Sequence record: NC_020079.1
Origin: Escherichia phage phAPEC8
Strand: one strand, 5' to 3'
DNA length: 64,000 nt
Part shown: piece by piece, positions 730 through 55,294 of the stretch
Position numbering within the stretch: the first letter of the stretch is position 1
Layout: each line of letters opens with the position of its first letter
Translations under genes and position numbers: made by a program
Notes under the pieces: model-generated
Told to the model about the DNA's origin: nothing
What the model saw: the letters and a program-made list of their open reading frames with translations, nothing else
Database searches by the model: none

Positions 730-758
730 TTGACAAAAGTCACTTTAAAGTGTATTAT
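730..758 (+). promoter_or_regulatory. sigma70-like promoter, TTGACA-N17-TATTAT with TG extended -10
   Basis: TTGACA at 730-735, 17-nt spacer, TGnTATTAT ending 758; lies in the gap between the terminase stop (726) and the portal start (828). Confidence 0.45.
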
Positions 759-827
759 AACTAGATAGGTGAGGTTGTATATAATACAGCCTTGCCTTAA
801 CGATTTTATACCTGACTGGAGGAACAA

Positions 828-2393
828 GTGTCAACAGGAAAAAGAACGTACACTAAAAAGTCAGAATACTGGGACAAAGGTGCTGCAAATAAAGCTGCTC
901 TCTCTCCAACAAAAGAGGCAGAGAAAGAGAAAACGTTACTCCTGTCACCTGAAATAGGAACGATCGGATTAAACTCAATCAAAGCATTTACGAATTTCAT
1001 GCAACCTTATGAGACTCGTTTCCCAGAATGTATTCGCACTTTTAAAGAGATGGGTGAAGACCCTGATGTAGCTACTGCTCTTGACGCTACATATATCTTT
1101 GTAGATAGAGCATTCTTTGATTTCAAGATAAAATACAATGTAAACTCGGCAAAGTCAAGAAAAGCTGCCAAGTTTATTGATTACATGTTACGCAATATGC
1201 AAGCCCCTCTACGTCAATATGTTAGATCACTTTTGACATATAAGCAATATGGTTTTGCATTCGCAGAGAAAGTTTATGAGTTGGATGAAGATCCTAAAAG
1301 TCCTTACTTTGGGTATTGGCGATTGACCAAATTGGCTTTTAGACCACAAGACACTCTTCACATGGCTCAACCTTTTACATATTCGGCAGACGGACGTTCT
1401 ATTCTATCTGTTAACCAGAATATCACCAATACGATGTTAGCTCCAGGTAATACAACTTTAGAAACTGGTATCAAAGAAATTCCTTTCAGTAAAGTTTTAT
1501 TTGTTGGTAGCAACATTACAGAGAATAACCCACTAGGAGTTAGTCCGCTTTTAGCTGTATATCGTAGCTGGCGTGAAAAATCTCTTATTCAGGAATTTGA
1601 GGTTATTGGGGTATCTAAAGATTTAGGCGGTATGCCAGTTCTCAAGGTTCCAAGTGACATTCTAAACAGGGCATCTTTAGATCCTGCTGGGGATGAAGCA
1701 CAATCTCTTCGAGTTCTCCAAGCCAACATCGCTAACCTGCACTCTGGTGAGCAAGCCTACATGGTATTGCCTTCAGACGTTTATGAAGGTACAGTGATGC
1801 GTCAATACGATCTTGTATTCCAAGGTGTTGATGGCACGGGTAAACAGTTTGACACTCAAGCGCTAATCAAACAACGCAAACTGGATATTTATAACCGTTT
1901 TGGTGCGGGTGTGTTGATTATGGGTGATGGTGATGCAGGAAGTTTTGCGCTTTCTGACAACAAACAAACACTATTGTCTCATTTTATTGAGCGAGATGTA
2001 GATATTGTTGTAGAAGCTATAAACTCTCAACTGATCCCTCAAACACTACGATTAAACAATATCTTCCTCTCTGATGAAGATATGCCTAAGTTTGTCAGTG
2101 GTGAAATGGGTGATCCTGATATTGAAGTAAATGCTAAAGCTATTCAGCAGTTGGTAGCCTCTGGTGCAATACCTTTAACCCCAGAAGTTATTAACGAGTT
2201 CCTTGAAAAAATTGGTTTTGAATATCGCATCCCTGATGATATTGTTGCCAACAAAGAGAAATTCTTTGAATTCATGGATAACTATATGCCTGACAAAACT
2301 TCACGATCAGGAGATGGTTTAGCTACAGCAGGAACTGGAACATCTGATAGCATTTCTGCTTTAGATCCTTCAGCACAAAACCTGTCGAATTAA
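828..2393 (+). CDS. portal protein (putative)
   Basis: 521-aa ORF with GTG start preceded by GGAGGA; position between terminase and head assembly genes and size fit a portal. No motif confirmation. Confidence 0.5.
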   Translation: MSTGKRTYTKKSEYWDKGAANKAALSPTKEAEKEKTLLLSPEIGTIGLNSIKAFTNFMQPYETRFPECIRTFKEMGEDPDVATALDATYIFVDRAFFDFKIKYNVNSAKSRKAAKFIDYMLRNMQAPLRQYVRSLLTYKQYGFAFAEKVYELDEDPKSPYFGYWRLTKLAFRPQDTLHMAQPFTYSADGRSILSVNQNITNTMLAPGNTTLETGIKEIPFSKVLFVGSNITENNPLGVSPLLAVYRSWREKSLIQEFEVIGVSKDLGGMPVLKVPSDILNRASLDPAGDEAQSLRVLQANIANLHSGEQAYMVLPSDVYEGTVMRQYDLVFQGVDGTGKQFDTQALIKQRKLDIYNRFGAGVLIMGDGDAGSFALSDNKQTLLSHFIERDVDIVVEAINSQLIPQTLRLNNIFLSDEDMPKFVSGEMGDPDIEVNAKAIQQLVASGAIPLTPEVINEFLEKIGFEYRIPDDIVANKEKFFEFMDNYMPDKTSRSGDGLATAGTGTSDSISALDPSAQNLSN

Positions 2394-2421
2394 AAATATT
2401 TAATATTTTTTAATTTTTCTA

Positions 2422-2450
2422 TTGACAAAACAACAAATATCCTGTAGACT
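2422..2450 (+). promoter_or_regulatory. sigma70-like promoter, TTGACA-N17-TAGACT with TG extended -10
   Basis: TTGACA 2422-2427, 17-nt spacer, TGTAGACT ending 2450; AT-rich intergenic region upstream of ORF 2487. Confidence 0.4.
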
Positions 2451-2486
2451 AAGATTTATGGGATATCTGTTTTTAAGAGGTTTCAA

Positions 2487-2966
2487 ATGGAACTCAATAA
2501 AGATACACTGTGGGAACTCTTCAAAACCTTCGCTGGTTTTAAAGAGAATTCTGAATCCCAACAAGATTCTATACCATCTCAAAAACCTGAAACTCTAGTC
2601 AAACAAAATAAATTTGATGAAGAAAAGATGCAGGTTATTGAGGTCTTGTATTGTCCACCTGAAGAAGACGATCTCCACGGAGAGCGCATGTCTGATTTGG
2701 AAATCAGGAAGATGGTTGACAACTTCAATGAGAATATTACCAACATTAGTGGTAATCTTGGTCACATGAAGAACACCGATAAGTTTTCTCCAATTAAAGC
2801 TTGGGTAAATGAAGTCGATTGTTACATTGGTGACGAACTCGTTGTGGAAGGAACTCCCCTCGTTAAAATCCAATTCAACGACCCTGAATTATATCAAGCT
2901 CGTAAAGACGGCGTTCTTAAAGGTTTGAGTATAGGCGCAATGGGCGTTAAAGTCAAGAAGGACTAA
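2487..2966 (+). CDS. head morphogenesis protein (function unresolved)
   Basis: 159-aa ORF between portal and scaffold-like gene, SD AAGAGG before ATG. Role (protease or assembly factor) not determinable from sequence alone. Confidence 0.35.
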   Translation: MELNKDTLWELFKTFAGFKENSESQQDSIPSQKPETLVKQNKFDEEKMQVIEVLYCPPEEDDLHGERMSDLEIRKMVDNFNENITNISGNLGHMKNTDKFSPIKAWVNEVDCYIGDELVVEGTPLVKIQFNDPELYQARKDGVLKGLSIGAMGVKVKKD

Positions 2967-2968
2967 TC

Positions 2969-4084
2969 GTGGCAAATACATATTTAACTAACGTAGACTT
3001 TTCAGGAAAAGCTACGGAAGAGTCACTAGGTGCTCATATTGCTTACACTTTTGATTTTCAAGGTGGAGCGGCATCTGGTTATAATACCCCCCTTTTATTT
3101 AAGTCAGACGGATCTCCAGACATAACTTTTGAAAAGTTAGAAGCTCTCACTAAAATGGGAGAAGATGTTACAGAGTTACGTAAAAGCTATATTCAACAAG
3201 TGATGGATCGCATTTCTGAAAAAGTGCGTGAAAAATTTGAAGCTGGTTGGGATTGGGTTTACGTTATTGATGCTGACTTCGATGCGAACGTTGCAATTTT
3301 CTGTTCAGATAACGGTATGTTCTCTGTTGGCTTTAAAGTTGACGGACTGAATGTTGAAGTTGAAGAGGTTGCTAAACCTGTTGTTCGTGTTACTGATTAT
3401 CAAGTTGTTGATGGTGATGTAATGATCTCCATTGATTTCTTTGAGGACGTTTTAGACGATGCTTTGAGTAATCTCGTTAAGAGTTCCTTGAAACAAAGTC
3501 AAGTTAAAGATTATTTAGTGAAAGCTCACGCTAAAGCTAATACAAACTCTGTGGATGCAGAGGCTAACCCCGCAGGTGATAAATCTGCAAACACAACTGG
3601 AATCAATAAAGGAGAAACCCCTTTGGAAAATATCAACAAAGAAGAATTCCTGAAATCTGCTGAATTCCAAGAACTGATGAAAGCACAGATTGCTGAAGCT
3701 GTAGAAAAAGCAGCAGCAGATGCACGTGCAGCCGCAGAACTTGAAGCACAGGAAAAAATCGCTAAGGCAGAACAGGAAGCAGAAGAACTTCGTAAAGCTG
3801 AACAAGCTCGTATCGAAGAAGAATATACAACTGTTGTTAAATCCTATTCTTTCGTAGAAGAAGACAAAGTTGAAGCTCTCGTTAAATATCTGGTAGACAA
3901 TAAAGATATCGCTGAAACTATCGTCAAAGCATTCGAAAAAGCACGTGCAGAAGTGGACGCAGTTAAGAAAGAATTTGGAACAGAACGTGGTGTTGACGTG
4001 ATCAATACTCAACCTGTAGCTAAATCTTCTTCTGAACTGATTAGTCAGAAAGCTGCTGAACTTAAAAAAGCCCAGAAACAATAA
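2969..4084 (+). CDS. scaffolding-like protein with Ala/Glu/Lys-rich coiled-coil C-terminal half
   Basis: 371 aa; C-terminal half is low-complexity, e.g. AEAVEKAAADARAAAELEAQEKIAKAEQEAEELRKAEQ, typical of scaffold proteins; located just upstream of decoration-like and major capsid genes. Confidence 0.45.
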   Translation: MANTYLTNVDFSGKATEESLGAHIAYTFDFQGGAASGYNTPLLFKSDGSPDITFEKLEALTKMGEDVTELRKSYIQQVMDRISEKVREKFEAGWDWVYVIDADFDANVAIFCSDNGMFSVGFKVDGLNVEVEEVAKPVVRVTDYQVVDGDVMISIDFFEDVLDDALSNLVKSSLKQSQVKDYLVKAHAKANTNSVDAEANPAGDKSANTTGINKGETPLENINKEEFLKSAEFQELMKAQIAEAVEKAAADARAAAELEAQEKIAKAEQEAEELRKAEQARIEEEYTTVVKSYSFVEEDKVEALVKYLVDNKDIAETIVKAFEKARAEVDAVKKEFGTERGVDVINTQPVAKSSSELISQKAAELKKAQKQ

Positions 4085-4103
4085 TCTTAGGAGATTAAAT
4101 TAA

Positions 4104-4502
4104 ATGGCTAAAGGAATTACTTTATCTAACTCTCGCCAGGAATTCGGACACCTGGTTCTGGGTGGAGTGTTTAGCTCTGACCTTGGACACTGTGTACGTG
4201 AAGTTAACCTGGTTAAAACAGCAACCATGAAAATTGGTTCTATCCTGAAAGCTGACAACACTGAAGCTGCTAAAGCTGAAGCTGCCGATGCTGCTAAAGT
4301 TCTGATTTGGACTGATGCTCTGTTCGGTATTGACGATGTAGCAGTAGGTGACACTTTCACCGCAGTTGTTGGCGTACGTGATCTTACTCTGAACCGCTTT
4401 GCAGTATACTACAAAGATGGCTCCCTGGTAGATGACGCTGGCGTAGCAGCACTGGAAACACATGATCTGAAACTGACCGAAAAAGTCGTTTTCACTTCTT
4501 AA
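4104..4502 (+). CDS. head decoration-like protein (gpD position)
   Basis: 132-aa ORF directly upstream of the major capsid gene; its initiation region TAGGAGATTAAATTAA-ATG is near-identical to that of the capsid gene, suggesting co-abundant expression. Confidence 0.4.
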   Translation: MAKGITLSNSRQEFGHLVLGGVFSSDLGHCVREVNLVKTATMKIGSILKADNTEAAKAEAADAAKVLIWTDALFGIDDVAVGDTFTAVVGVRDLTLNRFAVYYKDGSLVDDAGVAALETHDLKLTEKVVFTS

Positions 4503-4523
4503 TTTTAATAGGAGATTAATATA

Positions 4524-5525
4524 ATGCCAGCAGTAATTTTAGATCAGGTTGTAGATTTCAGCCCTATGATCGAACTTCAGGATTCCCCTGATACACTGAT
4601 TGCCAGCCTGAATCTGTTCAGTGTTGACTATCATTCAACTACCGCTATTGAAATCGGTAAAGAAAAAGCTGAAGATGCTCTGATCTCCGCTCGTGAGCGT
4701 GGTGGTGAGCGTAACTTCCTGACCATGAAAAATCCAGAACTGAAAGCGTTCCGCATTCCGTTCTTCCCTCTGGATAAAAACATCAAAGCTCAAGATATTC
4801 AATCTTTCCGTAGCTTTGCAATGGCAGGAATCAATGACTCTCTGCGCACAGACGCTGAAGTTGTTAACCGCTATATGTCCCAGATTCTGCGTGACGTAGC
4901 AAAAACCAAAGAGAAAATCTTTGCAGAAGCAGTTATGGGTCGTGCCTATAACGGCGTAGGTGGTGCAGCTAACTCTGCATACAACTGGTATACCGAATGG
5001 GGTGCTACCCAGAAATCTGTTGCTGTAGACTTTGCTTCTACCACTGTTTCTCCAGCAGCCACTATCGAACAAGAAGCTCGTGCTTACATCATCGATACTA
5101 AACAAGATGGCTCTACCGCTACCCGTATCGTAGCTCTGTGTTCTCGTGAATTTTTCGCATCTCTGGTTAACTCTCCGTTTGTTCGCCAGGCGTATCAGTA
5201 TTTCCAGGGAACTCCTAACCTTCTGCGTGACCGCCTTAGCGGTAACATGGATGTTCAGGTGTTCGAATGGAATGGTGTAACTTACATTGAAGATATCCAC
5301 GGTAACATCCCTGCTGGTGAAGCATATGTTCTGCCTATGGGTATCGAAGGTATGTTCCAGGCGCACTACGCTCCTGCGGATACTCCAGAACTGGCTAACA
5401 CCCAGGCTCGTGAACTGTATACCTTCATGATCAGCCAGCACCGCACTATTCAGCTTCAGTCTGAATTCTCGCTGCTCGCAGTTAACACCCGTCCAGAACT
5501 GGTAGTTAAACTGACTACGGCTTAA
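4524..5525 (+). CDS. major capsid protein, lambda gpE-like
   Basis: 333 aa; C-terminal region NTQARELYTFMISQ...ELVVKLTTA parallels the lambda gpE C-terminus (NTQARGLRTYG...EFVSVQLA, from memory); strong SD AGGAG; followed by an intrinsic terminator. Confidence 0.7.
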   Translation: MPAVILDQVVDFSPMIELQDSPDTLIASLNLFSVDYHSTTAIEIGKEKAEDALISARERGGERNFLTMKNPELKAFRIPFFPLDKNIKAQDIQSFRSFAMAGINDSLRTDAEVVNRYMSQILRDVAKTKEKIFAEAVMGRAYNGVGGAANSAYNWYTEWGATQKSVAVDFASTTVSPAATIEQEARAYIIDTKQDGSTATRIVALCSREFFASLVNSPFVRQAYQYFQGTPNLLRDRLSGNMDVQVFEWNGVTYIEDIHGNIPAGEAYVLPMGIEGMFQAHYAPADTPELANTQARELYTFMISQHRTIQLQSEFSLLAVNTRPELVVKLTTA

Positions 5526-5545
5526 TAGAACTCTGTTAATATTAG

Positions 5546-5579
5546 AGGCTCGTCCGTGATGGGCGAGCCTTTTCTGTTT
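5546..5579 (+). terminator. rho-independent terminator after major capsid gene
   Basis: Stem AGGCTCG(5546-5552)/CGAGCCT(5564-5570) with extra inner GC pairs, followed by TTTCTGTTT. Confidence 0.55.
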
Positions 5580-5609
5580 ACAATAAGAGTTTACAATGAG
5601 GAGATTGAT

Positions 5610-5954
5610 ATGTCAAACCCAGAATTGAAACGTTACTTTAGTTATCACGAAATGATTCGTGATTTCGAATCGCTTTCACCACTGATTGATGCTGATAAAA
5701 CATTAGTATCTGCGCCACCAATGTCTTTCTATCTGAAAGATGGTCGTATTGCATTAGGTGGAAACTTCATTCACTTCCTCACGCGTTTGAGAGAAGAAAC
5801 AGGTATTCTTGTGCATCCTTTTGCAAGTGAAGAACACATGGGTTACTATCTTGTGAGTTACGAAGACTATGCACCTGTAAAAATCAAAGAAGAAGTTTTA
5901 AAAGTAGAAGCGGTAGACACTCCAGCTAAAAAACGTTCCCTTCGTAAAAAATAA
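5610..5954 (+). CDS. hypothetical head-completion/connector protein
   Basis: Track ORF 5556..5954 begins inside the terminator hairpin; in-frame ATG at 5610 has SD GAGGAG (5598-5603) and gives a 114-aa product. Confidence 0.45.
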   Translation: MSNPELKRYFSYHEMIRDFESLSPLIDADKTLVSAPPMSFYLKDGRIALGGNFIHFLTRLREETGILVHPFASEEHMGYYLVSYEDYAPVKIKEEVLKVEAVDTPAKKRSLRKK

Positions 5955-5963
5955 GGTGGGCTT

Positions 5964-6512
5964 ATGCTGAATGCGGTAGAGTTGGCACCACTGATCCGAA
6001 TTCTTGTTTATAACCCTTCTCAAGAAGTATTGCCAGATGCAATGCTGATTCAGATCATCCAAACTTGGATTGATATTATAGGGAATGAAGATAAGGATAA
6101 GTGTGCAGTATTGTGGAACAGCTTGATTTCTGTTTTAGAGTATTTATGGAACAACGATGTTCTTAACAACAGTACTCAAACAGGGGGAGCTATGTCCCGC
6201 AGAGAAAAGATGGGTGAAGTCGAAGTTGAAGTTAAATTTAACAACGGTCAAATCACTTATAAGTCTCCGTGGGAAGATATCTATCATAACTATTTAAATG
6301 GTCTTATGGTCATTCCTGGGTGCACGGCAGGACGAGGAGCAACCAGTAAAGTTCTTATTGGTGGTGTTGATGCTCGTGAGATTGATCGAGTAAACAGCGA
6401 TCCTAACTCTGTAAATGGTCTTGGTAATGTTGCAAGTGTTGATCGTAATACACGCAACGTTAATTATTTGCGAAATTACGGACCTGTTTCTTTTTATCGT
6501 AGGGACAAATAA
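5964..6512 (+). CDS. hypothetical head-tail joining protein
   Basis: 182-aa ORF tightly packed in the head-to-tail gene block; SD AAGGTGG before ATG. Confidence 0.45.
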   Translation: MLNAVELAPLIRILVYNPSQEVLPDAMLIQIIQTWIDIIGNEDKDKCAVLWNSLISVLEYLWNNDVLNNSTQTGGAMSRREKMGEVEVEVKFNNGQITYKSPWEDIYHNYLNGLMVIPGCTAGRGATSKVLIGGVDAREIDRVNSDPNSVNGLGNVASVDRNTRNVNYLRNYGPVSFYRRDK

Positions 6513-7000
6513 TGGAAAGTGAGATCTTACCAGGGGACGATACAGATTGGGAAACCATTATCAAAAAGATGATGGACCTTGAACAAGTTCAAATCGAAGC
6601 TGGTTTTTTAACAAACAGAAGGCATCCTGAATCAGATCTCACTATTCCTGCAATAGCAGCTATTCAACAATATGGTAATGAAACAAATAACATACCTGCT
6701 CGCCCTTTTATAACAGATGGTGCTGTTATCTCACAGAACAATATCGCTAAAAAGATGAAGCAGGTGTTTGCAAATTACTTAATGCATAATGTTGGGTTAG
6801 CTGTTTTTGAGCCTATAGCGAGAGCCTCTAGAGAAGGAATAGCTCAAGCGATTGCAATGCAACGTTATCGTCCTTTATCTCCTGTGACAATTAAGATACG
6901 ACAAGATAAAGGCAACTATTCTAATCATATCTTAATAGATACGGCACACATGATAAATGCAATCGAAACAAAAATCACAAAAAGCAAGTCTAAAAAATAA
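6512..7000 (+). CDS. hypothetical head-tail joining protein
   Basis: 162-aa ORF; start overlaps the preceding stop (ATGG junction), typical translational coupling in structural operons. Confidence 0.45.
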   Translation: MESEILPGDDTDWETIIKKMMDLEQVQIEAGFLTNRRHPESDLTIPAIAAIQQYGNETNNIPARPFITDGAVISQNNIAKKMKQVFANYLMHNVGLAVFEPIARASREGIAQAIAMQRYRPLSPVTIKIRQDKGNYSNHILIDTAHMINAIETKITKSKSKK

Positions 7001-7001
7001 C

Positions 7002-7030
7002 TTGCATAAACTTTGTTTTTGATGTATACT
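7002..7030 (+). promoter_or_regulatory. sigma70-like promoter, TTGCAT-N17-TATACT with TG extended -10
   Basis: TTGCAT 7002-7007, 17-nt spacer, TGnTATACT ending 7030; followed by SD AAGGAG (7034-7039) and GTG at 7046. Confidence 0.35.
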
Positions 7031-7045
7031 AAAAAGGAGATACAA

Positions 7046-7462
7046 GTGTTACTAGATCAATTTACTCTCCTTGATCTAACTGAATACCAAGGTCGTAGAC
7101 GAGTCTACAAAGAGGCCGTTGGTTCAGTTATTGCTAACTTAGAAAGTAGTGTAGAATATGAACCATTTACTATTGAAGCTGCAAGCTTACAACCGATATC
7201 TGGTAAAACACTGAATGCACTACCTGAAGGTTACAGATCTAAGGCTCAATATAGTTTCTGGACTAAAACAGAAATGAAGGGGTTACAACAAGGAACAGAA
7301 CAGTTATCAGATCAGATATTGATAGATGGTAAATGGTATTCTGTTTATTCCCTTAAAGATTGGACCAGAACATCTTTCTTAGTCCATCATCACTGTGTTG
7401 CAATATTAGATGATCAAAACAACTCCTGGTCTTATGGAACAGAAGGAGGAAATTTTGGCTAA
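7046..7462 (+). CDS. hypothetical neck/tail-completion protein
   Basis: Track ORF 7013..7462; the in-frame GTG at 7046 has a near-perfect SD and lies downstream of the promoter-like element, so it is the preferred start. Confidence 0.45.
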   Translation: MLLDQFTLLDLTEYQGRRRVYKEAVGSVIANLESSVEYEPFTIEAASLQPISGKTLNALPEGYRSKAQYSFWTKTEMKGLQQGTEQLSDQILIDGKWYSVYSLKDWTRTSFLVHHHCVAILDDQNNSWSYGTEGGNFG

Positions 7463-8093
7463 TATTTACCAACAAATAGAAGCATACGAAAATGCCATCT
7501 ACTTAAATATAGGTGGCTTCCTTCAAGAATTAGTGGGGTTGCCAGTCTATGTTATGGATAAGCCATTCATTAAACCGGATACTCCTTACCTAGCACTACG
7601 TATTATCACTTCCAGCGATTCTGGAGGTTGGTCTTACCGAAGCTCTATTCAAAATGATATGTATTCCTACGAGATGGATAATACCTACGAGATTGAACTT
7701 GTAGCCTATCGTGGAAGACCTACCACTTTGATGAGCTATGTTCTGGCTGCTCTCCGTGGTGCAGAGGAATTAAAATACAAACATCTCTATTCTAAAGGTC
7801 TTGGTTTTTTAGGAGCCTCTAATATAGCTCAAGCCAATACAATTGTAGACGGAGATAAGACTGAATTAAGAGCGCGTATGGTTATGACGTTCAACACTCG
7901 TATGAGTATTGAAGATATTGCTACTACACCAATAGAAGCAATCAACATGCACATCCGTTCATTCAGAGATAGTTACAATGATCCTATCCCTTTAGATTTA
8001 ATTCTAAACAGGGTTTATGCAATTACTTTGGTTCCAGGCGAATACTCGTCAGTTAATCAAAATGGATCATTATTTAACAACCCTACCGAATAA
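7434..8093 (+). CDS. hypothetical neck/tail-completion protein
   Basis: Track ORF 7410..8093; start ambiguous (ATG 7410, ATG 7434 or TTG 7455 after GGAGGA); overlaps the 3' end of the upstream gene. Confidence 0.4.
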   Translation: MEQKEEILANIYQQIEAYENAIYLNIGGFLQELVGLPVYVMDKPFIKPDTPYLALRIITSSDSGGWSYRSSIQNDMYSYEMDNTYEIELVAYRGRPTTLMSYVLAALRGAEELKYKHLYSKGLGFLGASNIAQANTIVDGDKTELRARMVMTFNTRMSIEDIATTPIEAINMHIRSFRDSYNDPIPLDLILNRVYAITLVPGEYSSVNQNGSLFNNPTE

Positions 8094-8127
8094 ACTCATT
8101 GGAATTAAGTTTCTAACAGGAGCATAA

Positions 8128-9501
8128 ATGGCAACTTTTCGTGAAAAGGTAGCAACCGTAACTTTACTGTATGGTGCTACATCAATTCGTGAAACCCAGT
8201 TCGATATTCCCCTGATCCTTACAGGTCAGAACGTAACTGGCGAAGCGATTCAATATTACTCTTCTTCCGATGCACTTTTGGAAGCAGGTTATGGATTAAA
8301 TGATCCAGCGTATATTATGGCAGTCAAACTGTTTAACGGTTTGTTCCCACCAGATCAAGTCATGGTTGGTAAGCGTGAAGTTACAAACTTTACTCTAACT
8401 CCAATCGTAGAAGATAGTGCAACTTACACAATTACCATCAAAAATGGTACCAAGAAAAAAGAATTTAAATTCATTGCTGATGACACTGCAACTGCACAAG
8501 AGATTGTAGTTGGTCTGACTGAAATGATCAATGCAGATCTTGTTTATGGCCCACTGTTTACAGTAGCTAACAACGGTGCTGCAATGACTTTCACTCCAGT
8601 AGAAGGTAAGTTTGGTTCTATTGACAGCACAGGTTTCACTCAAGAAACTGTCTATGCTAATGCTATTACGGAAGATATTGCTGCTCTGCATGATATTGAT
8701 AGTAGCTGGTTCTGGACCCTTTCAGATTCCCATGAAACAGAAGATGTTCTAGCTTTGGCTGCATGGGTAGAAGAGAATGATAAAGTTTACTTCTTCTCTA
8801 GCTCTGAACCTGGAATTAAAACGAAAGCAGAAGATAACGTTCTGGAACGACTGAATGACCTCGGTTATAATAACACTTGCTTTGCTTTGTGGATGACCGA
8901 TGCAGATTCTGTATTCCCAGAAGCAGCAGTTGTTGGTGCAATCTGTTCTCGTCAACCTGGTTTAACTACTCTTCACGGTAAAACACTGGTAGGCGTAGAG
9001 ATCGAGAAACTGGATCAGACTTCGGAAAACAATATTGTTCAACAGAACGGTAACATCTATCGTAAAGAGCATGGAACTCTGTTCTATCGTGACGGATTGA
9101 TGGTTAGCGGTTTCTTTGTTGACTATGTTGTTCATGCTTTGTGGTTTAAAGCTCGCACAGAAGAATCACTGTTTACACTGTTTAAACAACAGTCTATGCT
9201 GGGTGGTGGTGTTCGTGCTACTTCAAATGGTCTGGCTTTGATTCGACAAGCTGTTCTGGCTAACCCGATCCAAGTAGGTATCCTCAACGGTTCCATCGCT
9301 AATGAAGTTGTTACTTCTGAAGAGACTGGTTTGCGTGTCGATCTGAAACCTATCGTTTATATTCCTTCTCGTGCCGATATGACTGATGCGCAAATCAATG
9401 CTCGTCTGGTCGATGGGATGAAGATTGAATATGTTTACGCTGGCTTCTTCCATTACGTTAAAGTTCAGGTTAACGTCCTGACTAACCGTACTGCAAACTA
9501 A
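8128..9501 (+). CDS. tail sheath protein (putative)
   Basis: 457-aa ORF immediately upstream of a 159-aa tube-like gene, chaperone pair and tape measure, the canonical contractile-tail order. No motif confirmation. Confidence 0.45.
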   Translation: MATFREKVATVTLLYGATSIRETQFDIPLILTGQNVTGEAIQYYSSSDALLEAGYGLNDPAYIMAVKLFNGLFPPDQVMVGKREVTNFTLTPIVEDSATYTITIKNGTKKKEFKFIADDTATAQEIVVGLTEMINADLVYGPLFTVANNGAAMTFTPVEGKFGSIDSTGFTQETVYANAITEDIAALHDIDSSWFWTLSDSHETEDVLALAAWVEENDKVYFFSSSEPGIKTKAEDNVLERLNDLGYNNTCFALWMTDADSVFPEAAVVGAICSRQPGLTTLHGKTLVGVEIEKLDQTSENNIVQQNGNIYRKEHGTLFYRDGLMVSGFFVDYVVHALWFKARTEESLFTLFKQQSMLGGGVRATSNGLALIRQAVLANPIQVGILNGSIANEVVTSEETGLRVDLKPIVYIPSRADMTDAQINARLVDGMKIEYVYAGFFHYVKVQVNVLTNRTAN

Positions 9502-9504
9502 TAC

Positions 9505-9525
9505 GGCGGGGGTTAAGCCCCCGTT
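9505..9525 (+). terminator. GC-rich stem-loop after sheath gene (weak terminator or stability element)
   Basis: CGGGGG/CCCCCG stem (9507-9512 / 9518-9523) with flanking wobble pairs; downstream U-tract is poor. Confidence 0.3.
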
Positions 9526-9547
9526 ATCAAAATAAAGAGGATCTATA

Positions 9548-10027
9548 ATGGATAAAATGCTTACTGGCGTAATGGCCTACGACCCATCTCAAGTTATCCT
9601 TTCATTAGGTGGTTGGGAACCGTGGGGTTTTGCGGCTGATACTAAAATCGTTATTGCTAAATCTAACGATATTATCAACCCTTATTCAGGGACTGATGGC
9701 GACGTTTCACTAGCTTTGAGTCGTAACCGTTTAGGAACACTCACAATGTCTTTGCAACGCACATCTCCAGCTAACGAAGTACTTGCAACATATGCACAAA
9801 CAATGTATTCTACTCGTCAAGTAGCGTTCAGTGTTTACTTGGAAGACCCACGTGGCTATTACATTAGCACGATTGGATGGATTCAAAGTCAGCCTGAAGA
9901 TACTATTGGCGAAATGATTACAGAGAACCAATGGGTTATTGGTCTTAAAGATGCAAGCCTTCTGCGTAATGAAGTTGGTGTAGGTTTGAGCACCCTTAAC
10001 TCAATCTCTGCTCTGACAATTCAATAA
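9548..10027 (+). CDS. tail tube protein (putative)
   Basis: 159-aa ORF between sheath-like gene and tail chaperone genes; strong SD AAAGAGG; followed by a terminator. Confidence 0.45.
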   Translation: MDKMLTGVMAYDPSQVILSLGGWEPWGFAADTKIVIAKSNDIINPYSGTDGDVSLALSRNRLGTLTMSLQRTSPANEVLATYAQTMYSTRQVAFSVYLEDPRGYYISTIGWIQSQPEDTIGEMITENQWVIGLKDASLLRNEVGVGLSTLNSISALTIQ

Positions 10028-10033
10028 TAAATA

Positions 10034-10060
10034 AAGGGCAGAAATGCCCTTTTTATCATT
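10034..10060 (+). terminator. rho-independent terminator after tube gene
   Basis: Stem AAGGGCA/TGCCCTT with GAAA loop followed by TTTTATCATT. Confidence 0.55.
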
Positions 10061-10072
10061 AGAGAGGAAAAT

Positions 10073-10555
10073 ATGTCACAAGAACAAGATAACACAATTC
10101 AAAAATATGCTCGACCAGAAGAAGTAGTTGAGATTCCGTTAGATGGAAACAGATCTGTTACTTTCCGTATTATGAAGTGGAGTCCATCTAAAGTGTTTGA
10201 CAGGATTCCAGAATTAGGTAGTGTTCTGGTTGTTCCTATGACTATGTATAGCACAGCAACAATGTCCGCAGACGAAGACCTTGAGTCACGTATTGCTATG
10301 GCACTGATCCAACTTTTTGCAGGTTTGGAAGAAAAGAATTTAACTGTCTTTTTGCGTAAAATTTTAGATGAGGTTTATACTCAAGACGGTTATAACGTTG
10401 CAGAAAATTTTGATGAATTATTTATGGCTCACCCAGAACTAGTGTTAGATCTTACGGCTAAAGTTCTGGAGGTAAACTACGGCCCTTTTTTCAAACGAGG
10501 TTTCGGAAAACTGTTCACACAGCTTCAGGCGATGACGAGTTTAGCAGCAAATTAA
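10073..10555 (+). CDS. tail assembly chaperone (G-like, zero-frame product)
   Basis: 160-aa ORF directly upstream of the tape measure gene; contains slippery heptamer T_TTT_TTC near its 3' end with an open -1 frame continuing downstream. Confidence 0.55.
   Translation: MSQEQDNTIQKYARPEEVVEIPLDGNRSVTFRIMKWSPSKVFDRIPELGSVLVVPMTMYSTATMSADEDLESRIAMALIQLFAGLEEKNLTVFLRKILDEVYTQDGYNVAENFDELFMAHPELVLDLTAKVLEVNYGPFFKRGFGKLFTQLQAMTSLAAN
10486..10492 (+). other. programmed -1 ribosomal frameshift slippery site (T_TTT_TTC)
   Basis: Heptamer in X_XXY_YYZ register relative to the 10073 frame (codons CCT TTT TTC AAA); the -1 frame is open from 10462 to the stop at 10819-10821. Confidence 0.5.
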
Positions 10556-10821
10556 CACCTGCGATTGAACATGCTATCGACACAGCAACGAAAACCCTTA
10601 CTTTGAAGTGGTATGAGGTTATTCTTTGCAAAGTCGTTAAAGATACCTCGGAAACACTGAAAACATTGGATAACTACGGTGTAGATTATCTTTTAAAACT
10701 ATATGAGTATTTAACATACGAAGAGTATGTTGAAGCCATGTATGTTAAAGACACTTCAATAAAGAGAAAACATCAAAACCAGACAAATAAAATGTCAGAT
10801 TTGTTTAAGAAACTTGTTTAA
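10489..10821 (+). CDS. tail assembly chaperone -1 frame extension (GT-like fusion, C-terminal part)
   Basis: After a -1 slip at 10486-10492 translation continues ...PFFQTRFRKTVHTASGDDEF... to 10821, giving a fusion of about 250 aa; track ORF 10603..10821 is the tail of this frame. Confidence 0.45.
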   Translation, partial: FQTRFRKTVHTASGDDEFSSKLTPAIEHAIDTATKTLTLKWYEVILCKVVKDTSETLKTLDNYGVDYLLKLYEYLTYEEYVEAMYVKDTSIKRKHQNQTNKMSDLFKKLV

Positions 10822-10841
10822 TCCAACACGAGGAACATACT

Positions 10842-12830
10842 TTGTTAGAAATTAACGCCTCCAAAATTAGTAACGTGGTTACGTTTAAGGTGGACAAGAA
10901 CAGTCTCAAGGAAGCAAAAGATGCCGTGTTGAGTGTTCAGAAGTTTGCAAATAAAATGCAACCCACTATGAACATGACCAAGTTTAGACAGCAAATGAAA
11001 GAGATTGAGCGTGAACTTAAGAAAGCTCAAACTCAAAGTCAAAAACCTATGCGAGCACCTACTCCCGCTGGAGCGGGTGCTCCTGTAGGAGGATCTGGTA
11101 GACCTAGAACTCCTAAAACCCCGCAAGGAAGAGAAGAAGAAAAAGCTCGTAAAGCTGCTGAACGCGAAGCTAAAGCAGCAGCACGTAGGGAAGATTTAGG
11201 TAATCTTCGTTTGCAGAACTTTAACTATCGAGCAAGAGCATTTAGTAAAGCTAGTCCTGGCGCTATGCAAGAAGCTAGAGACGTTATGGGTAAAGCTGTA
11301 GAACAATACAAAAAGGGTGAAATAACTCTTCAACGTATGAACCAAGCTCTTGCTCACCAGTTAGATGCCTTACGCAGATCTCATCGTGAAAAGAATGCTG
11401 AAATAGAAGACGAGGTTCGCGGTCGTCGCCGTATTCGTAGAGAGCTAGAAGCAGAAGCTAAAATGCGTATACGTATGCGAAATCGTGAACTTAGAGATAT
11501 AGAACGCAACCGTAAGCGTGAATTAGCTCAACAAAAACGTGATCGTGATCGTCGATATGGACAATTAAAAGAAGGTGCAGCAGGTCTTAATCCACGCATG
11601 ATTGCATCCTCTTTAATAGGTGCTGGGCTGTTTGCAGGTGGTTCTGTAGTTGGTAACACGTTGATGAATACTAACGAAAGAATTAAACTTGTAAGTCGTG
11701 GTGCTGAAAACGTTCAGACAAACGCCAACGCTATTTTGGCAATGACAGCTTGGGGTGAACAGAACGGTGTAGACTCTGCAAATATTATTAAGTCAATAGA
11801 TAATATTAAAGACGTTCGTGAACGTCTTGGTAATACAGTTTTAGCCTCAAAATGGAATGAGAAAGAAGGGAAGTGGAAAGGCGGTGATAATGGCATAAAT
11901 GACATTATGAACTTGTTTGGATGGAATCCAGAACAGCTTAAACCTTTACAGAACGATCCTTTAGCTTTTATTCAGGCTACTGTTAATGAAGGTGAGCGTC
12001 GAGGTATGAACTCTGCTCAAATCGGGCGACTTCTTGAAAACCTTGGTGATGACCTTATGCACTACCAACGTATGTTTAGTAAAAACGGCGAAGGGTATAA
12101 TGAAGTATTGAAAATGCTTCAAAGAACAGGTGCAACATTAACTCAAGAACAAATAGATGCTTCTAAAGAGTTTACTCGTTTTGCTGCAACAGTTCAGCTT
12201 GTAGGTCAAGGTATGCAGAACCATTTCTTAGAGGGTTTTGTAAAAGCTTTACCTAAAGATGATTCTTGGTTGGATAACGTTAAAGTGCTAGATCAGTTCG
12301 CCAAAGATTTAGGTGAAGAACTTGGTAAAACAACAGTTCAACTTGGTGGTTTTGCTAAAGAATTAGGAGATGGTTTCGGATCTTTTACCAATTGGCTTAA
12401 AGAAACATTCCCAGATACCTTCGGAGACAACACAGATCCTAATAAATCTTTGGCACAAAAAGCATACGAGGCAACGCAAAGTGGAGACAGCAATCCTGTA
12501 GCAGATTGGTTGTACAATTTAACAGGTATTGATACACAAGATATTGGTCGTATGTGGAGAGGAGAAGAAACAAGGACACGTGCTTTTGGATTTGGTAATC
12601 CTCTTGAAGATTTACGTGAATCAGCCTATACACCTAACGTAAGTTTGGCTCGTAATCAACCTGTTGTTGAGAATACGGTAGCAATACCAAGTGATCTTAT
12701 CAAAGTTACGATCAGCCCTTCTTCAGAGTTTGGAAATATTCTTGATGCAAGAATTCAAAATAGCGGAAATAGCATTTTCCAACGTTTGTCTCTTTCAACT
12801 CTAAGTGGACAATCTAACACTGGTGGTTAA
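10842..12830 (+). CDS. tail tape measure protein
   Basis: 662 aa; charged helical repeats (EEKARKAAEREAKAAARRED, RRRIRRELEAEAKMRIRMRNRELRD) and Gly-rich hydrophobic segment; located immediately after the frameshifted chaperone pair; followed by a strong terminator. Confidence 0.7.
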   Translation: MLEINASKISNVVTFKVDKNSLKEAKDAVLSVQKFANKMQPTMNMTKFRQQMKEIERELKKAQTQSQKPMRAPTPAGAGAPVGGSGRPRTPKTPQGREEEKARKAAEREAKAAARREDLGNLRLQNFNYRARAFSKASPGAMQEARDVMGKAVEQYKKGEITLQRMNQALAHQLDALRRSHREKNAEIEDEVRGRRRIRRELEAEAKMRIRMRNRELRDIERNRKRELAQQKRDRDRRYGQLKEGAAGLNPRMIASSLIGAGLFAGGSVVGNTLMNTNERIKLVSRGAENVQTNANAILAMTAWGEQNGVDSANIIKSIDNIKDVRERLGNTVLASKWNEKEGKWKGGDNGINDIMNLFGWNPEQLKPLQNDPLAFIQATVNEGERRGMNSAQIGRLLENLGDDLMHYQRMFSKNGEGYNEVLKMLQRTGATLTQEQIDASKEFTRFAATVQLVGQGMQNHFLEGFVKALPKDDSWLDNVKVLDQFAKDLGEELGKTTVQLGGFAKELGDGFGSFTNWLKETFPDTFGDNTDPNKSLAQKAYEATQSGDSNPVADWLYNLTGIDTQDIGRMWRGEETRTRAFGFGNPLEDLRESAYTPNVSLARNQPVVENTVAIPSDLIKVTISPSSEFGNILDARIQNSGNSIFQRLSLSTLSGQSNTGG

Positions 12831-12837
12831 TAAAATA

Positions 12838-12859
12838 CCTCGCTTCGGCGGGGTTTTTT
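12838..12859 (+). terminator. rho-independent terminator after tape measure gene
   Basis: Stem CCTCGC/GCGGGG with UUCG tetraloop (12838-12853) followed by T6 (12854-12859). Confidence 0.6.
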
Positions 12860-12867
12860 CGTTTCCC

Positions 12868-12897
12868 TTGACACGAAGTTTCTATATGTGTTACAAT
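12868..12897 (+). promoter_or_regulatory. sigma70-like promoter, TTGACA-N18-TACAAT with TG extended -10
   Basis: TTGACA 12868-12873, 18-nt spacer, TGtTACAAT ending 12897; sits between the terminator and the next gene start at 12957. Confidence 0.4.
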
Positions 12898-12956
12898 AAT
12901 CAATATGGGAAGATCTTGCATCTTCCTTTTGGCATTATCATTACTACGAGGTTATC

Positions 12957-13658
12957 ATGGCAGCAATGACTCCACAACAGTCGGTGAGAGCCGTCTATAA
13001 GGCAGAACAGGAAATCAACTCTACCGAGAATAAAAATACCTCGGCATCTACTGTAAAGGGTGATAATGGTTTCTGCATTTTAGCAAGTGTTTATAATAGT
13101 TCAAGTGATCAATATATTCAAAACTTTAAAGCAATTACTTTCGATTCAGTCCCTGAAATAGGTGTAACTCGTGAGGCAGATGTTACAAGTTTTCCAGTAG
13201 AATCAGGATCAGATGTAAGTGACCACGTTCAAATAAAAAACAACAGATTTAAACTTTCAGGTATAATTACCGAAACACCAATTCGGCTTATGCGAGATCA
13301 ACTATACAGCGCAGGTGTAAATGGGGCAAGGATTTCTCAAGCAATAGAATATCTAGATCAAATATTTGAGTCAAGACAACCAATAGTTCTTTTGACAGAA
13401 CACAGGACTTTTGAAAATGTTATTCTGAAAGGCTACTCTTATGATTATAAATCTGAATTTGCTATGCAATTTGATTTAGAGTTCGAACAAATTCGTCTAG
13501 TCTCTAAGGCCACTACTAATGCTATTGCTGTAAAAACAGCACCAAATAAGTCAACTGGTGGTGATGTGAAAGGTCAAGTCGCTTCTAATGGTCCTAAGTC
13601 AGATATTACAGTAAGAACTGCTGAAGCTACTAACACCCCAACAAACAACGGAGGTTAA
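12957..13658 (+). CDS. hypothetical tail/baseplate protein
   Basis: 233-aa ORF, first gene after the tape measure; SD GAGG before ATG. Confidence 0.45.
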   Translation: MAAMTPQQSVRAVYKAEQEINSTENKNTSASTVKGDNGFCILASVYNSSSDQYIQNFKAITFDSVPEIGVTREADVTSFPVESGSDVSDHVQIKNNRFKLSGIITETPIRLMRDQLYSAGVNGARISQAIEYLDQIFESRQPIVLLTEHRTFENVILKGYSYDYKSEFAMQFDLEFEQIRLVSKATTNAIAVKTAPNKSTGGDVKGQVASNGPKSDITVRTAEATNTPTNNGG

Positions 13659-32191: not shown

Positions 32192-32197
32192 TGGAAT

Positions 32198-32217
32198 AGA
32201 GGGGGGATTCCCCCTCT
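32198..32217 (+). terminator. stem-loop after tailspike gene (probable terminator)
   Basis: 8-bp stem AGAGGGGG/CCCCCTCT with GATT loop; downstream tract pyrimidine-rich but not a clean U-run. Confidence 0.4.
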
Positions 32218-32253
32218 TCTTCCAATAGAATGGTCTAATGATAGGAGAGATAA

Positions 32254-34278
32254 ATGAATTTAACAAGACCTAATAGTGCGATAGCCGATCTGGTAGAAGC
32301 TACTTATCGAAAACGTCGCAGCTTTGAGGCAGGTTTTACATTACGTAATTCCCGTGAAGTTTTGCTGTTAGCAGCAGAAGGGAATTATTACCAATGGAAA
32401 GGAACTTTTCCTAAAGTTGTTCCAGCAAACTCTACGCCAGCCACCACAGGTGGTATTTCTTCCCTTGCATGGCAAAGTGTTGGGACCGCTGATGATATAG
32501 CAATTATCAATGCCAAGTTTACGGCAATGCAGCAACAGATTGATGATCTGTCGGAAACAATACCTGAAGCTGGTAAATCGGCTTATCAGATCGCACTTGA
32601 TAATGGTTTTGTTGGAACAGAAGCACAATGGCTTGCTTCTTTGAAAGGGGATACTGGTGCTCAACTTAATATTAAAGGATCATTAGCAAGCACTAGTGAA
32701 CTACCATCCACAGGTAACGTTGCAGGGGATGGTTATATCGTAGGTGATGTAATCTACGCTTGGGATGGTTCTGTTTGGAAACTTATTTCTTCTCTTGGGC
32801 CAGAAGGTAAATCAGCTTACGAGGTATGGTTGGCAGATGGTAATACAGGATCTGTTTATGATTTTCTTACCTCTATAAAAGGTGATAAAGGTGATGTTGG
32901 TCCTACAGGGCCACAGGGAGCACCTGGTGTTAACGCCAACGGTTTTGATTATCGTGGGGATTTGCCTTCTACAAGTAACTTACCACAACCTAACTCTGAA
33001 AACGTAAGCCAAGCTTATTCTATCAATGGTAATCTTTATGTCTCTAATGGGACAGCTTGGGTCAACATGGGTAATATTGTTGGTCCTCAAGGTCCACAAG
33101 GTGAGGCAGGTAAAGACGGTCTTGATGGAACAGATGGAGATGAAGGGAAATCTGCATATCAAAGTTGGCTGGATGCTGGTAATGAAGGGACAGAAGTAGA
33201 TTTTATTGCCTCACTTAAAGGTCCAAAAGGAGACAAGGGTGATCAAGGAGAGCGAGGTCCACAAGGTGAACTAGGTCCACAAGGACCAGTGGGTGCAACA
33301 GGATCAGGCTTAGAGATTATCGGGGTTCTGAACAGTGAAGCTGAACTTCCTCCTACTGGAGAAGTAGGTGATGCATATAAAATTAATAATGATTTGTATG
33401 TTTGGATTCAAGATGCTACGGAATGGATGAATGTTGGCAGTCTTGGAGGAACATCAATTACAGCTAAAGGTCATGTTCCGAACAGTGAAGCTCTCCCTGT
33501 TTATAATAACTATGGCGATGCCTACTTAACTGAAGACACCAGTAATCTTTACATCTATACCTACGATCAAGACACCAATTCCGCATCTTTTGTTGACATG
33601 GGAAGTATTAAAGGCGACAAAGGTGAAAAAGGGGATAAAGGGGATAAGGGTGATCCTGGAACAAATGGAACCAACGGTACTGATGGGACCAACGGTAAGG
33701 ACGGCGCACAGTGGTTTGTAGCAACAACTAATCCAGTCGCAGGAGACGGTGTTATCAATGATTACGCCTTCAATACTACCACTGGAGCAGTGTTTAAGAA
33801 AACAGATTCTTCTACGTGGACACTTATAGGAACTCTTCCTAGTATACCAGAAGCCCCTCAAGACGGCTTGACGTATGGTCGTTCTGATGGAAACTGGATC
33901 GAAATATCAGGATCAGATCCTACAGAAGCTATAACACCAACTAGAGTTACAGCAGGTTTCATGGAACTTGAAACAACTACTGCCAACTCTGGAGCATCTT
34001 GGACTCCTTCTGGAACTTCCAATATGTATGTTGTTACAGTAACTGATGCTCTGACAGTTGGAGCATGGCCTGGTGTCACTGGCTCTACAAAACCTAAAGC
34101 GTTTTCAGCAATGATTTATTTGATTCAAGATACAACGGGACACACGGTTACACTAGATGCGTCTTATGGAGCACTAAATGATACAGAAATAGCAACTACT
34201 GCTAACGCAGTAACAATTTTGCAATTAACGTATCCTGGTGTGGGTGATATCGTGGACATGGTTGTTGTAACACGATAA
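32254..34278 (+). CDS. collagen-like tail fibre protein with phage-fibre repeats
   Basis: 674 aa; three copies of K-SAY-x-(A/W)L-x-GFVGTE/GNTGS...(A/T)SLKG motif and several Gly-X-Y runs (GDKGEKGDKGDKGDPGTNGTNGTDGTNGKDG). Confidence 0.65.
   Translation: MNLTRPNSAIADLVEATYRKRRSFEAGFTLRNSREVLLLAAEGNYYQWKGTFPKVVPANSTPATTGGISSLAWQSVGTADDIAIINAKFTAMQQQIDDLSETIPEAGKSAYQIALDNGFVGTEAQWLASLKGDTGAQLNIKGSLASTSELPSTGNVAGDGYIVGDVIYAWDGSVWKLISSLGPEGKSAYEVWLADGNTGSVYDFLTSIKGDKGDVGPTGPQGAPGVNANGFDYRGDLPSTSNLPQPNSENVSQAYSINGNLYVSNGTAWVNMGNIVGPQGPQGEAGKDGLDGTDGDEGKSAYQSWLDAGNEGTEVDFIASLKGPKGDKGDQGERGPQGELGPQGPVGATGSGLEIIGVLNSEAELPPTGEVGDAYKINNDLYVWIQDATEWMNVGSLGGTSITAKGHVPNSEALPVYNNYGDAYLTEDTSNLYIYTYDQDTNSASFVDMGSIKGDKGEKGDKGDKGDPGTNGTNGTDGTNGKDGAQWFVATTNPVAGDGVINDYAFNTTTGAVFKKTDSSTWTLIGTLPSIPEAPQDGLTYGRSDGNWIEISGSDPTEAITPTRVTAGFMELETTTANSGASWTPSGTSNMYVVTVTDALTVGAWPGVTGSTKPKAFSAMIYLIQDTTGHTVTLDASYGALNDTEIATTANAVTILQLTYPGVGDIVDMVVVTR
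33613..33706 (+). repeat. collagen-like Gly-X-Y coding repeat tract
   Basis: Triplet-periodic GGN-NNN-NNN repeats encoding GDKGEKGDKGDKGDPGTNGTNGTDGTNGKDG within the fibre gene. Confidence 0.6.
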
Positions 34279-34281
34279 CAG

Positions 34282-34306
34282 AAGCCCCGAAAGGGGCTTT
34301 CTTTTT
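34282..34306 (+). terminator. rho-independent terminator after collagen-like fibre gene
   Basis: Stem AAGCCCC/GGGGCTT with GAAA loop followed by TCTTTTT. Confidence 0.6.
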
Positions 34307-36995: not shown

Positions 36996-36996
36996 T

Positions 36997-37031
36997 AAAA
37001 AAGGGAACCCGCAAAGGTTCCCTTTTCTTTT
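36997..37031. terminator. bidirectional intrinsic terminator at the convergence of plus and minus transcription arms
   Basis: A6 (36997-37002), stem GGGAACC/GGTTCCC (37003-37022), then TTTTCTTTT; flanked by U/A tracts on both sides so it can serve either strand. Confidence 0.65.
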
Positions 37032-43489: not shown

Positions 43490-43518
43490 AGTATAAGTCT
43501 CTTCCGTAAAGTTGTCAA
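43490..43518 (-). promoter_or_regulatory. sigma70 consensus-like promoter on minus strand (TTGACA-N17-TATACT)
   Basis: Minus-strand TTGACA (43513-43518), 17-nt spacer, TATACT (43490-43495); 34 nt upstream of the ATG at 43456. Confidence 0.5.
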
Positions 43519-46562: not shown

Positions 46563-46569
46563 ACTTCAC

Positions 46570-50020: not shown

Positions 50021-50049
50021 AGTATAACACGATAGAGGCTTTATTGCAA
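50021..50049 (-). promoter_or_regulatory. sigma70-like promoter on minus strand (TTGCAA-N17-TATACT)
   Basis: Minus-strand TTGCAA (50044-50049), 17-nt spacer, TATACT (50021-50026), 32 nt upstream of the TTG start at 49988. Confidence 0.45.
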
Positions 50050-50690: not shown

Positions 50691-50705
50691 CTTTTGTCTC
50701 CTCTA

Positions 50706-51995: not shown

Positions 51996-51996
51996 A

Positions 51997-55291: not shown

Positions 55292-55294
55292 AAC

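Follow-up and report, generated by a model that had tools for sequence, protein, structure and literature searches.

In phage lambda, a constitutive sigma-70 promoter, pR', stands before the late structural genes and operates with the terminator tR' and Q antitermination. In T5, the genes of all three temporal classes are transcribed by the Escherichia coli RNA polymerase holoenzyme containing sigma-70 (E-sigma70); its late promoters PJ5 and PG25 have been mapped by primer extension, the main difference between the early and the late promoters is in the discriminator, and gpT5.026, a protein that binds the polymerase, has been implicated (PMC7472727). Similarly, Kropinski et al. (2013) described 33 promoters of the TTGACA-N15-18-TATAAT type throughout the genome of rV5 (Vequintavirinae), 11 of them with an extended -10 element, and two of the promoters, P036 and P051, lie within the late gene block; homologues of gp33, gp45 and gp55 were not found, and the authors considered that a T4-style modification of the polymerase "might not occur" (PMC3606486). 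In T4-type phages, the promoter-early stem-loops (PeSLs) combine a strong sigma-70-like promoter, an A+T-rich tract upstream of it, a stem-loop and a 3' Shine-Dalgarno sequence (PMC2839356, PMC4122927), and the stem-loop often overlaps the -10 element (PMC2839356). PeSLs occur as repeats that are mutually similar over approximately 100 bp; they border early ORFans in hyperplastic regions, and recombination is mediated by them (PMC2839356, PMC4122927). The present work concerns a 64,000-nt stretch of Escherichia phage phAPEC8 (NC_020079.1), referred to below as the window, and six promoter-like elements that an earlier sequence-only reading had noted in it: P730, P2422, P7002 and P12868 on the plus strand, among the structural genes, and the 43490 and 50021 elements on the minus strand. 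It is likely that these elements are working promoters for host E-sigma70 in a Phapecoctavirus genome, that they divide its morphogenesis module into transcription units and that they are coupled to hairpins.

All six elements are present at the positions given in that reading, and each is intergenic and co-oriented with the next gene (Table 1). Every one has a TAnnnT -10 hexamer and a spacer of 17 or 18 bp. The -35 hexamer is exactly TTGACA at 730, 2422, 12868 and 43490, and agrees with it at four of six positions at 50021 and at three of six at 7002. The earlier description of the elements as near-consensus is overstated for P7002, which reaches only 8 of the 12 consensus positions because TTGCAT departs from TTGACA at half of its length. 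The same reading had given them a TG extended -10, an optional feature of sigma-70 promoters; this part stands for 12868 and 50021, which have T-15 G-14 n-13, and fails for the other four, since the TG directly adjoins the hexamer (-14/-13) at 730, 2422 and 7002 and is lacking in the 43490 element. P730 lies in a gap of 101 nt between the end of terL at 726 and the GTG start codon of the portal gene at 828. The tract upstream of P2422 is 100% A+T, and the promoter-like element precedes the block 2487-5525, which ends at the major capsid gene. P7002 precedes the neck, sheath and tube block, and its -10 hexamer ends 5 nt before a GGAG ribosome-binding site; because the two are so near each other, P7002 is the least certain of the four plus-strand sites. 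On the minus strand, the 50021 element directly follows a hairpin at 50050-50069.

One explanation of such matches is chance in A+T-rich intergenic DNA, and some of the data are in line with it: a loose 9/12 scan of the first 20 kb of the window gave 50 sites against 55 expected, with no overall excess; the P7002 element scores low; and two matches of 10/12 look spurious and were set aside, one at 12929-12958 (+), which overlaps a start codon, and one on the antisense strand at 781..754, which lies within a hairpin. On the other hand, nine sense-strand matches of at least 10/12 fall in the 23 intergenic gaps that are co-oriented and at least 30 nt long (2471 nt in total), against 0.59 expected from composition-matched base shuffling, and none of 2000 shuffles reached nine. 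The antisense strand of the same gaps holds one, a strand bias of 9 to 1. In the structural half only, three matches of this quality are found against 0.16 expected, a count reached by 3 of 5000 shuffles. These shuffles and the strand bias contradict chance, as do hexamers that are invariant across five to seven diverged lineages (see below), and we regard chance as a most improbable origin of the elements. In addition, the four plus-strand sites coincide one for one with the A+T-rich gaps, four in number, of the 37 kb structural module and are its sole promoter candidates; the remaining gaps of the module have only a hairpin and/or a ribosome-binding site.

The four structural gaps were aligned with those of phiWec190 (81% identity over the region), phi92 (76%) and the Klebsiella phages FKP3 (74%) and 05F01 (67%), giving five lineages, and conservation was reckoned relative to the window sequence. 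At the four structural sites, conservation is 88-100% for the -35 hexamers, 40-81% for the spacers and 46-75% for the remainder of each aligned block, and two positions of the -10 hexamer, the second and the sixth (A-11 and T-7), do not vary. Hexamers that stay fixed while the spacers drift are the footprint expected from selection on sigma-70 promoters. A scan of IMG/VR with the portal protein supplied six further loci, all from close relatives, and did not reach distant families. In the terL-portal gap, seven distinct lineages can be compared: TTGACAAAA is invariant, and TAnnnT follows 17-18 nt downstream in all seven. The 2422 site is conserved at 100% in the -35 hexamer and 96% in the -10 hexamer across the five lineages. 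Despite its weak score, the 7002 site has ACTTGCA and TGTATACTAA invariant in five of five, and the 12868 site has TTGACA in four of five and TGnTAnnAT in four of five. Canonical TGn is in fact the majority form at orthologous sites in the relatives, both at 12868 and in the terL-portal gap, where five of the seven lineages have it in the forms TGtTAAAGT, TGgTAAAGT and TGtTAATAT. Of the minus-strand elements, the 50021 site keeps its hairpin, TTGCAA and TGTGTTAnAnT in Paula (Justusliebigvirus) and phiWec188; the 43490 site is not conserved in these two phages, in which the locus is rearranged. A shared "AA" discriminator of the four structural promoters was also considered and was rejected, as it is not conserved in relatives. 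Based on the gap shuffles and the conservation across lineages, the recurrence of the elements proposed from the sequence alone exceeds chance.

In the arrangement that we infer from these data, P730 would drive the portal gene; P2422 would drive the genes from 2487 to the capsid, encoding a 159-aa product, a 371-aa putative scaffold, the decoration protein and the major capsid protein; P7002 would drive the neck, sheath and tube genes up to the tape measure gene; and P12868 would drive the baseplate and fibre genes. Each promoter would be coupled to hairpins, with a terminator 5' of P12868 and a terminator around the -10 hexamer of P2422. The promoters would add transcripts, the hairpins would attenuate or stabilise them, and the chain of promoters and hairpins may set the relative output of low- and high-copy virion proteins.

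The stem-loops that follow P730 and P12868 start 9-10 nt after the -10 hexamer and would thus form the 5' end of the new messenger RNA (mRNA). Stem-loops at the 5' terminus shield E. coli mRNA from RNase E and RppH-dependent decay. The hairpin at 767-797, which the ASO2A record annotates as a terminator, would come a few nucleotides at most from the 5' terminus of the portal mRNA if transcription starts at the usual distance; another possible role is to cap the terL message at its 3' end. A hairpin is present here in every relative, and at least four unrelated stem sequences are found; because the stems are unrelated, it is the structure and not the sequence that is kept. Similarly, the stem-loop at 12907-12927 would be the 5'-terminal hairpin of the predicted P12868 transcript. 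The hairpin at 2437-2474 encloses the -10 hexamer of P2422, so that only read-through RNA from the portal gene folds it; transcripts initiated at P2422 cannot, because the 5' arm is missing from them. In 05F01, a U-G and a G-U pair of this stem are replaced by U-A and A-U, that is, wobble pairs by Watson-Crick pairs. The 2422 gap is nearly invariant from the -35 hexamer to the ribosome-binding site owing to this double constraint of promoter and hairpin, and the hairpin is predicted to be a terminator or attenuator overlapping the promoter. The hairpin at 5544-5572 encloses the start of the next gene (GTG 5556 or ATG 5559), and its folding could therefore also limit translation of that gene. 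A scan of the whole window against Rfam found no family at gathering score.

The structural genes might instead be expressed mainly by read-through from promoters of the tRNA, lysis and terL region via leaky hairpins, the elements contributing little or serving only for cassette recombination of the PeSL kind. In favour of this, the genes between the tRNA cluster and 36995 are arranged in tandem on a single strand, additional sigma-70-like sites are present before the window begins, and the U-tracts of several hairpins are poor. Read-through, however, offers no explanation for conservation that is specific to the hexamers while the spacers drift. The four elements have no sequence in common beyond the hexamers and are therefore poor substrates for recombination, and there are clear terminators at 5544, 10033 and 12837. 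We consider it unlikely that read-through is the main source of these transcripts, and promoters within the module remain the better account.

The sequence-only reading had also suggested that these promoters are used by unmodified host polymerase and not by a phage polymerase or late sigma factor. Use of host sigma-70 polymerase is reasonable and well supported, as the elements evolve like promoters and neither factor was detected in the part of the proteome that was scanned; that this polymerase is unmodified is a conjecture. The T4-late motif TATAAATA occurs in two copies in 37 kb, against 2.8 expected, neither of which stands in the 150 nt before a gene start; the rV5-type motifs TGGTAAAAT and TGnTAWAAT are not enriched, and none lies within 150 nt of the structural gene starts. 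No RNA polymerase, sigma factor, anti-sigma factor or transcription regulator is named in the annotated records, one of which is fully function-named. When the window's minus-strand proteins were concatenated and scanned with Pfam, the domains found were TerD, TelA, vWA-TerF, PRTase, SprT, glycosyltransferase and cell-wall hydrolase, none of them related to transcription. A tblastn search with the Srd-like protein gp11 of rV5 gave no match in the window or in the rest of the genome of Mt1B1_P17, a 99%-identical phage, and this is a weak test. Since most of the proteins are uncharacterised and the proteome was scanned in part, these negatives for a polymerase or sigma factor carry limited weight. 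In addition, the same promoter grammar is found in 33 candidate promoters across the Mt1B1_P17 genome, namely TTGACA, 16-18 bp and TAnnnT, often with TGn and an A+T-rich upstream tract. In the part of that genome beyond the window, elements of this kind precede small ORFan genes, which are presumably early genes, as well as metabolism genes and the tRNA cluster. This shared grammar before putative early, replication and structural genes implies that the phage appears to use one holoenzyme throughout, like T5.

Several observations weigh against host E-sigma70 promoters as the full explanation. Approximately 24,000 of some 46,000 residues of the proteome were judged by the product names in the records only, and because half of the proteome was judged in this way, a divergent sigma factor or polymerase-binding protein is possible among the hypothetical proteins. 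A search of the literature found no transcriptomes of Phapecoctavirus, Stephanstirmvirinae or Vequintavirinae. P7002, at 8/12, would give a transcript that is almost leaderless. A U-rich tract follows the P730 hairpin in several relatives, so that the hairpin could terminate P730's own transcripts as an attenuator. Finally, activity from the very beginning of infection is to be expected of near-consensus promoters, and the "late" timing of the structural genes, itself presumed from gene content, then lacks an explanation.

Four ways of timing these promoters are possible, and we rank them as follows. There may be no strict delay, with output climbing with template copy number after replication; dense putative early promoters may compete for polymerase and later be shut off; a phage polymerase-binding protein may act; or the promoter-proximal hairpins may be attenuators. 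Under the reading preferred here, the delayed or high late expression would come from template copy number, promoter competition or a polymerase-binding protein and not from a new promoter class. In the putative early region of the Mt1B1_P17 record, approximately 13 repeated cassettes precede tiny ORFan genes at 1245-12502 (locus L009, minus strand). Each consists of TTGACA, a 16-nt spacer, TAnnnT, (G/T)TAT(C/T)AC as discriminator and, starting 8-12 nt past the -10 hexamer, a GGCGG..CCGCC hairpin, and this 16-bp spacer, discriminator and hairpin are absent from the structural promoters, whose spacers are 17-18 nt. One diverged copy is present in the window at 57900-57969 (-), upstream of gene 56917-57891; the putative early region of Mt1B1_P17 carries four exact copies of the repeated motif TCACRTAGGGCGG, for which the window has a single near-match. 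The difference in discriminator between cassettes and structural promoters recalls the early/late difference of T5.

It is possible, though clearly less probable than direct use by the host enzyme, that these sigma-70-type promoters are used only after a phage factor has modified the host polymerase, or that they are repressed early; modification here covers a polymerase-binding protein, a sigma appropriator or covalent modification. The precedent is T5, in which all classes depend on E-sigma70, the early/late distinction lies in the discriminator and gpT5.026 acts through the discriminator, and the putative early cassettes do differ from the structural promoters in spacer and discriminator. 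Most phage proteins also lack an assigned function. On the other hand, neither the Pfam scan of minus-strand proteins, the rV5 gp11 search nor the annotations yielded a candidate factor, the group differences between cassettes and structural promoters rest on 4 against 13-17 sites, and relatives do not share the discriminator of the structural promoters. Use by the host E-sigma70 holoenzyme is still the reading that we prefer. A more speculative idea, to which we give a low probability, is that the structure-conserved hairpins starting 9-12 nt 3' of the -10 hexamer, at the portal promoter and in the approximately 13 cassettes, are a real control point. If so, they would be promoter-proximal attenuators, or 5'-end stability elements read by a phage factor; ordered output would be obtained from near-consensus sigma-70 promoters without a new sigma factor, and PeSL-like cassettes of promoter and stem-loop would extend to a phage lineage unrelated to T4.

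Table 1. Promoter-like elements, hairpins and genes of the window (scores are matches to the 12 positions of TTGACA and TATAAT; ORF, open reading frame)
Feature	Position	Strand	Description	Basis
P730 (P-portal)	730..758	+	TTGACA-17-TATTAT, 11/12; no canonical TGn	
P2422	2422..2450	+	TTGACA-17-TAGACT, 10/12; no canonical TGn	
P7002	7002..7030	+	TTGCAT-17-TATACT, 8/12; no canonical TGn	
P12868	12868..12897	+	TTGACA-18-TACAAT, 11/12; canonical TGn; precedes baseplate/tail-fibre block	
43490 element	43518..43490	-	TTGACA-17-TATACT, 11/12; no TG; after primase/helicase terminator	
50021 element	50049..50021	-	TTGCAA-17-TATACT, 9/12; canonical TGn; precedes cell-wall hydrolase gene	
Stem-loop, 14 bp	767..797	+	starts 9 nt after P730 -10; -20.8 kcal/mol, z -4.35	
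Hairpin, 12 bp, with T-run	2437..2474	+	encloses P2422 -10; -13.7 kcal/mol	
Strong terminator-like hairpin	5544..5572	+	after major capsid gene; 13 pairs, 7 G-C	
Hairpin	9505..9535	+	after tail sheath gene; no promoter following; read as attenuator	
Terminator-like hairpin	10033..10052	+	after putative tube gene; no promoter following; read as attenuator	
Intrinsic terminator	12837..12854	+	after tape measure gene; CCTCGCTTCGGCGGGG then TTTTTT; -15.4 kcal/mol, z -3.86	
Stem-loop, 8 bp	12907..12927	+	starts 10 nt after P12868 -10; -8.7 kcal/mol, no better than shuffles	
Hairpins after two fibre genes	32192-32233, 34272-34299		no promoter following	
Bidirectional terminator	36981-37024	both	convergent junction of strand blocks	
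terL, 3' end	to 726	+		relatives' annotation, ORF map
Portal	828-2393	+	GTG start at 828	relatives' annotation, ORF map
Block between portal and capsid	from 2487	+	159-aa product, then 371-aa protein, then decoration protein	
Major capsid	4524-5525	+		relatives' annotation, ORF map
Neck proteins	between capsid and sheath	+		relatives' annotation, ORF map
Tail sheath	8128-9501	+		relatives' annotation, ORF map
159-aa virion structural protein	9548-10027	+	potential tail tube	annotation of phage 05F01 homologue
Tape measure	10842-12830	+		relatives' annotation, ORF map
Baseplate and tail fibres, 24 kb block	to 36995	+		relatives' annotation, ORF map
TerD	50088-50690	-		Pfam scan
vWA-TerF-like	51201-51995	-		Pfam scan
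TelA	53592-54704	-		Pfam scan
SprT-like	54701-55291	-		Pfam scan
ComF-like PRTase	58695-59522	-		Pfam scan

For the first 13 kb of the window, matches covering at least 80% of the length were found in 66 phage records. The closest is Escherichia phage vB_EcoM_UP17 (99.6% identity), and many Phapecoctavirus genomes (phAPEC8-like, Stephanstirmvirinae) come next among the matches; judged from these matches, the window is part of the genome of a Phapecoctavirus, a phAPEC8-like E. coli myovirus. Phage records labelled Campylobacter, Acinetobacter and Klebsiella also match this E. coli phage group. Acinetobacter ABPW7, Klebsiella ZCKP1 and Campylobacter B15 are approximately 99% identical to the window, and other Campylobacter-labelled records (e.g., A150) show approximately 76% identity and belong to a phi92-like group. 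Either the host labels are unreliable in this group or the phages derived from contaminating E. coli.

The structural gene map was drawn from the annotated records of relatives and an ORF map made here. The plus strand carries the morphogenesis genes at 1-36995, a module of 37 kb, and the minus strand, at 37059-64000, carries the genes for DNA polymerase, primase/helicase, glycosyltransferases, a cell-wall hydrolase and a Ter-like cluster; the sign of the GC skew changes at approximately 36 kb, in agreement with this two-strand map. The 371-aa protein is called hypothetical in the two records examined in full and "putative scaffold" in other records. Several genes have non-ATG starts, GTG for the portal gene (828) and a neck gene (7046) and TTG for the genes at 10603 and 10842; the GTG of the portal and neck genes is ATG or another codon in some diverged relatives. 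Both proteins encoded at 45618-47520 have glycosyltransferase domains in Pfam. The Ter-like stress cluster, which is tellurite-resistance-like, extends over 50088-59522. Within it, a perfect 12/12 consensus with TGn (TTGACA-16-TATAAT) is found at 51017-51044 (-), inside the 3' end of ORF 50956-51204; gene 50706-50975 and the TerD gene come 42 nt downstream of it, and it is a likely internal promoter. Approximately 2.7 kb upstream of the window start, there is a further module in which a terminator is followed by a promoter (locus L001, 264-334): a hairpin at 264-282 and then TTGACT-17-TAAGAT with TGn. It precedes the block of small genes, spanin and terL, so this is where the unit of transcription running into the window would begin. 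The tRNA cluster upstream of the window is likewise preceded by two TGn promoters.

How the locus stands to the systems described above can now be considered. No promoter is annotated at the terL-portal site in 60 listed Phapecoctavirus records, and none is annotated in the ASO2A record anywhere in the first 50 kb of the window; the elements are thus newly recognised cases of a known promoter class. As at lambda pR', the order of a promoter and then a close terminator-like hairpin is seen among the structural promoters; the arrangement differs in that there are several promoters with hairpins from approximately +3, whereas lambda has one promoter with its hairpin at approximately +190. No Q-like gene or Q-binding element was identified, the Q homologue having been sought in record annotations only. 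The PeSLs are resembled at 730, 2422 and 12868, where a promoter is combined with an adjoining or overlapping stem-loop and a Shine-Dalgarno sequence, and at 2422 the stem-loop lies over the -10 hexamer, exactly as in T4-type PeSLs; no hairpin of this type was found at 7002 or 43490. The elements of the structural module, however, share only hexamers and sit between conserved core genes, so that they lack the defining feature of PeSLs; a closer analogue is found in the putative early region, with its repeated cassettes.

The likeness to rV5 is that of another large E. coli myovirus with related structural genes, and the phi92 record cites protein similarity to rV5 and PVP-SE1. The differences are that rV5 belongs to another subfamily, that the motif TggTAaAAtA found by MEME upstream of its late genes is not enriched in the window, and that a homologue of its Srd-like gp11 was not found in the window or Mt1B1_P17. 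With T5, the phage shares late virion genes behind sigma-70 consensus promoters and, as far as the scanned and annotated proteins show, the lack of a phage polymerase or sigma factor; the two phages are unrelated, the T5 promoters are mapped and those described here are predicted, and no gpT5.026-like factor is known here. The sequence-only reading had called host promoters unexpected for late structural genes; this does not hold, as rV5 (PMC3606486) and T5 (PMC7472727) precede. The finding is ordinary because it was predicted for rV5 and shown by experiment for T5. In general, it is real, conserved, ordinary for this phage group and anticipated in the literature, and the interpretation given from the sequence alone is largely correct. 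It reveals no new mechanism; what it provides is a concrete map of transcription units, open to testing, for the morphogenesis module in phAPEC8-like phages, a group in wide use as therapy candidates. Beside T5, these phages form a second large coliphage group in which all gene classes are seemingly on sigma-70-type promoters, and what sets timing can therefore be asked in a second system.

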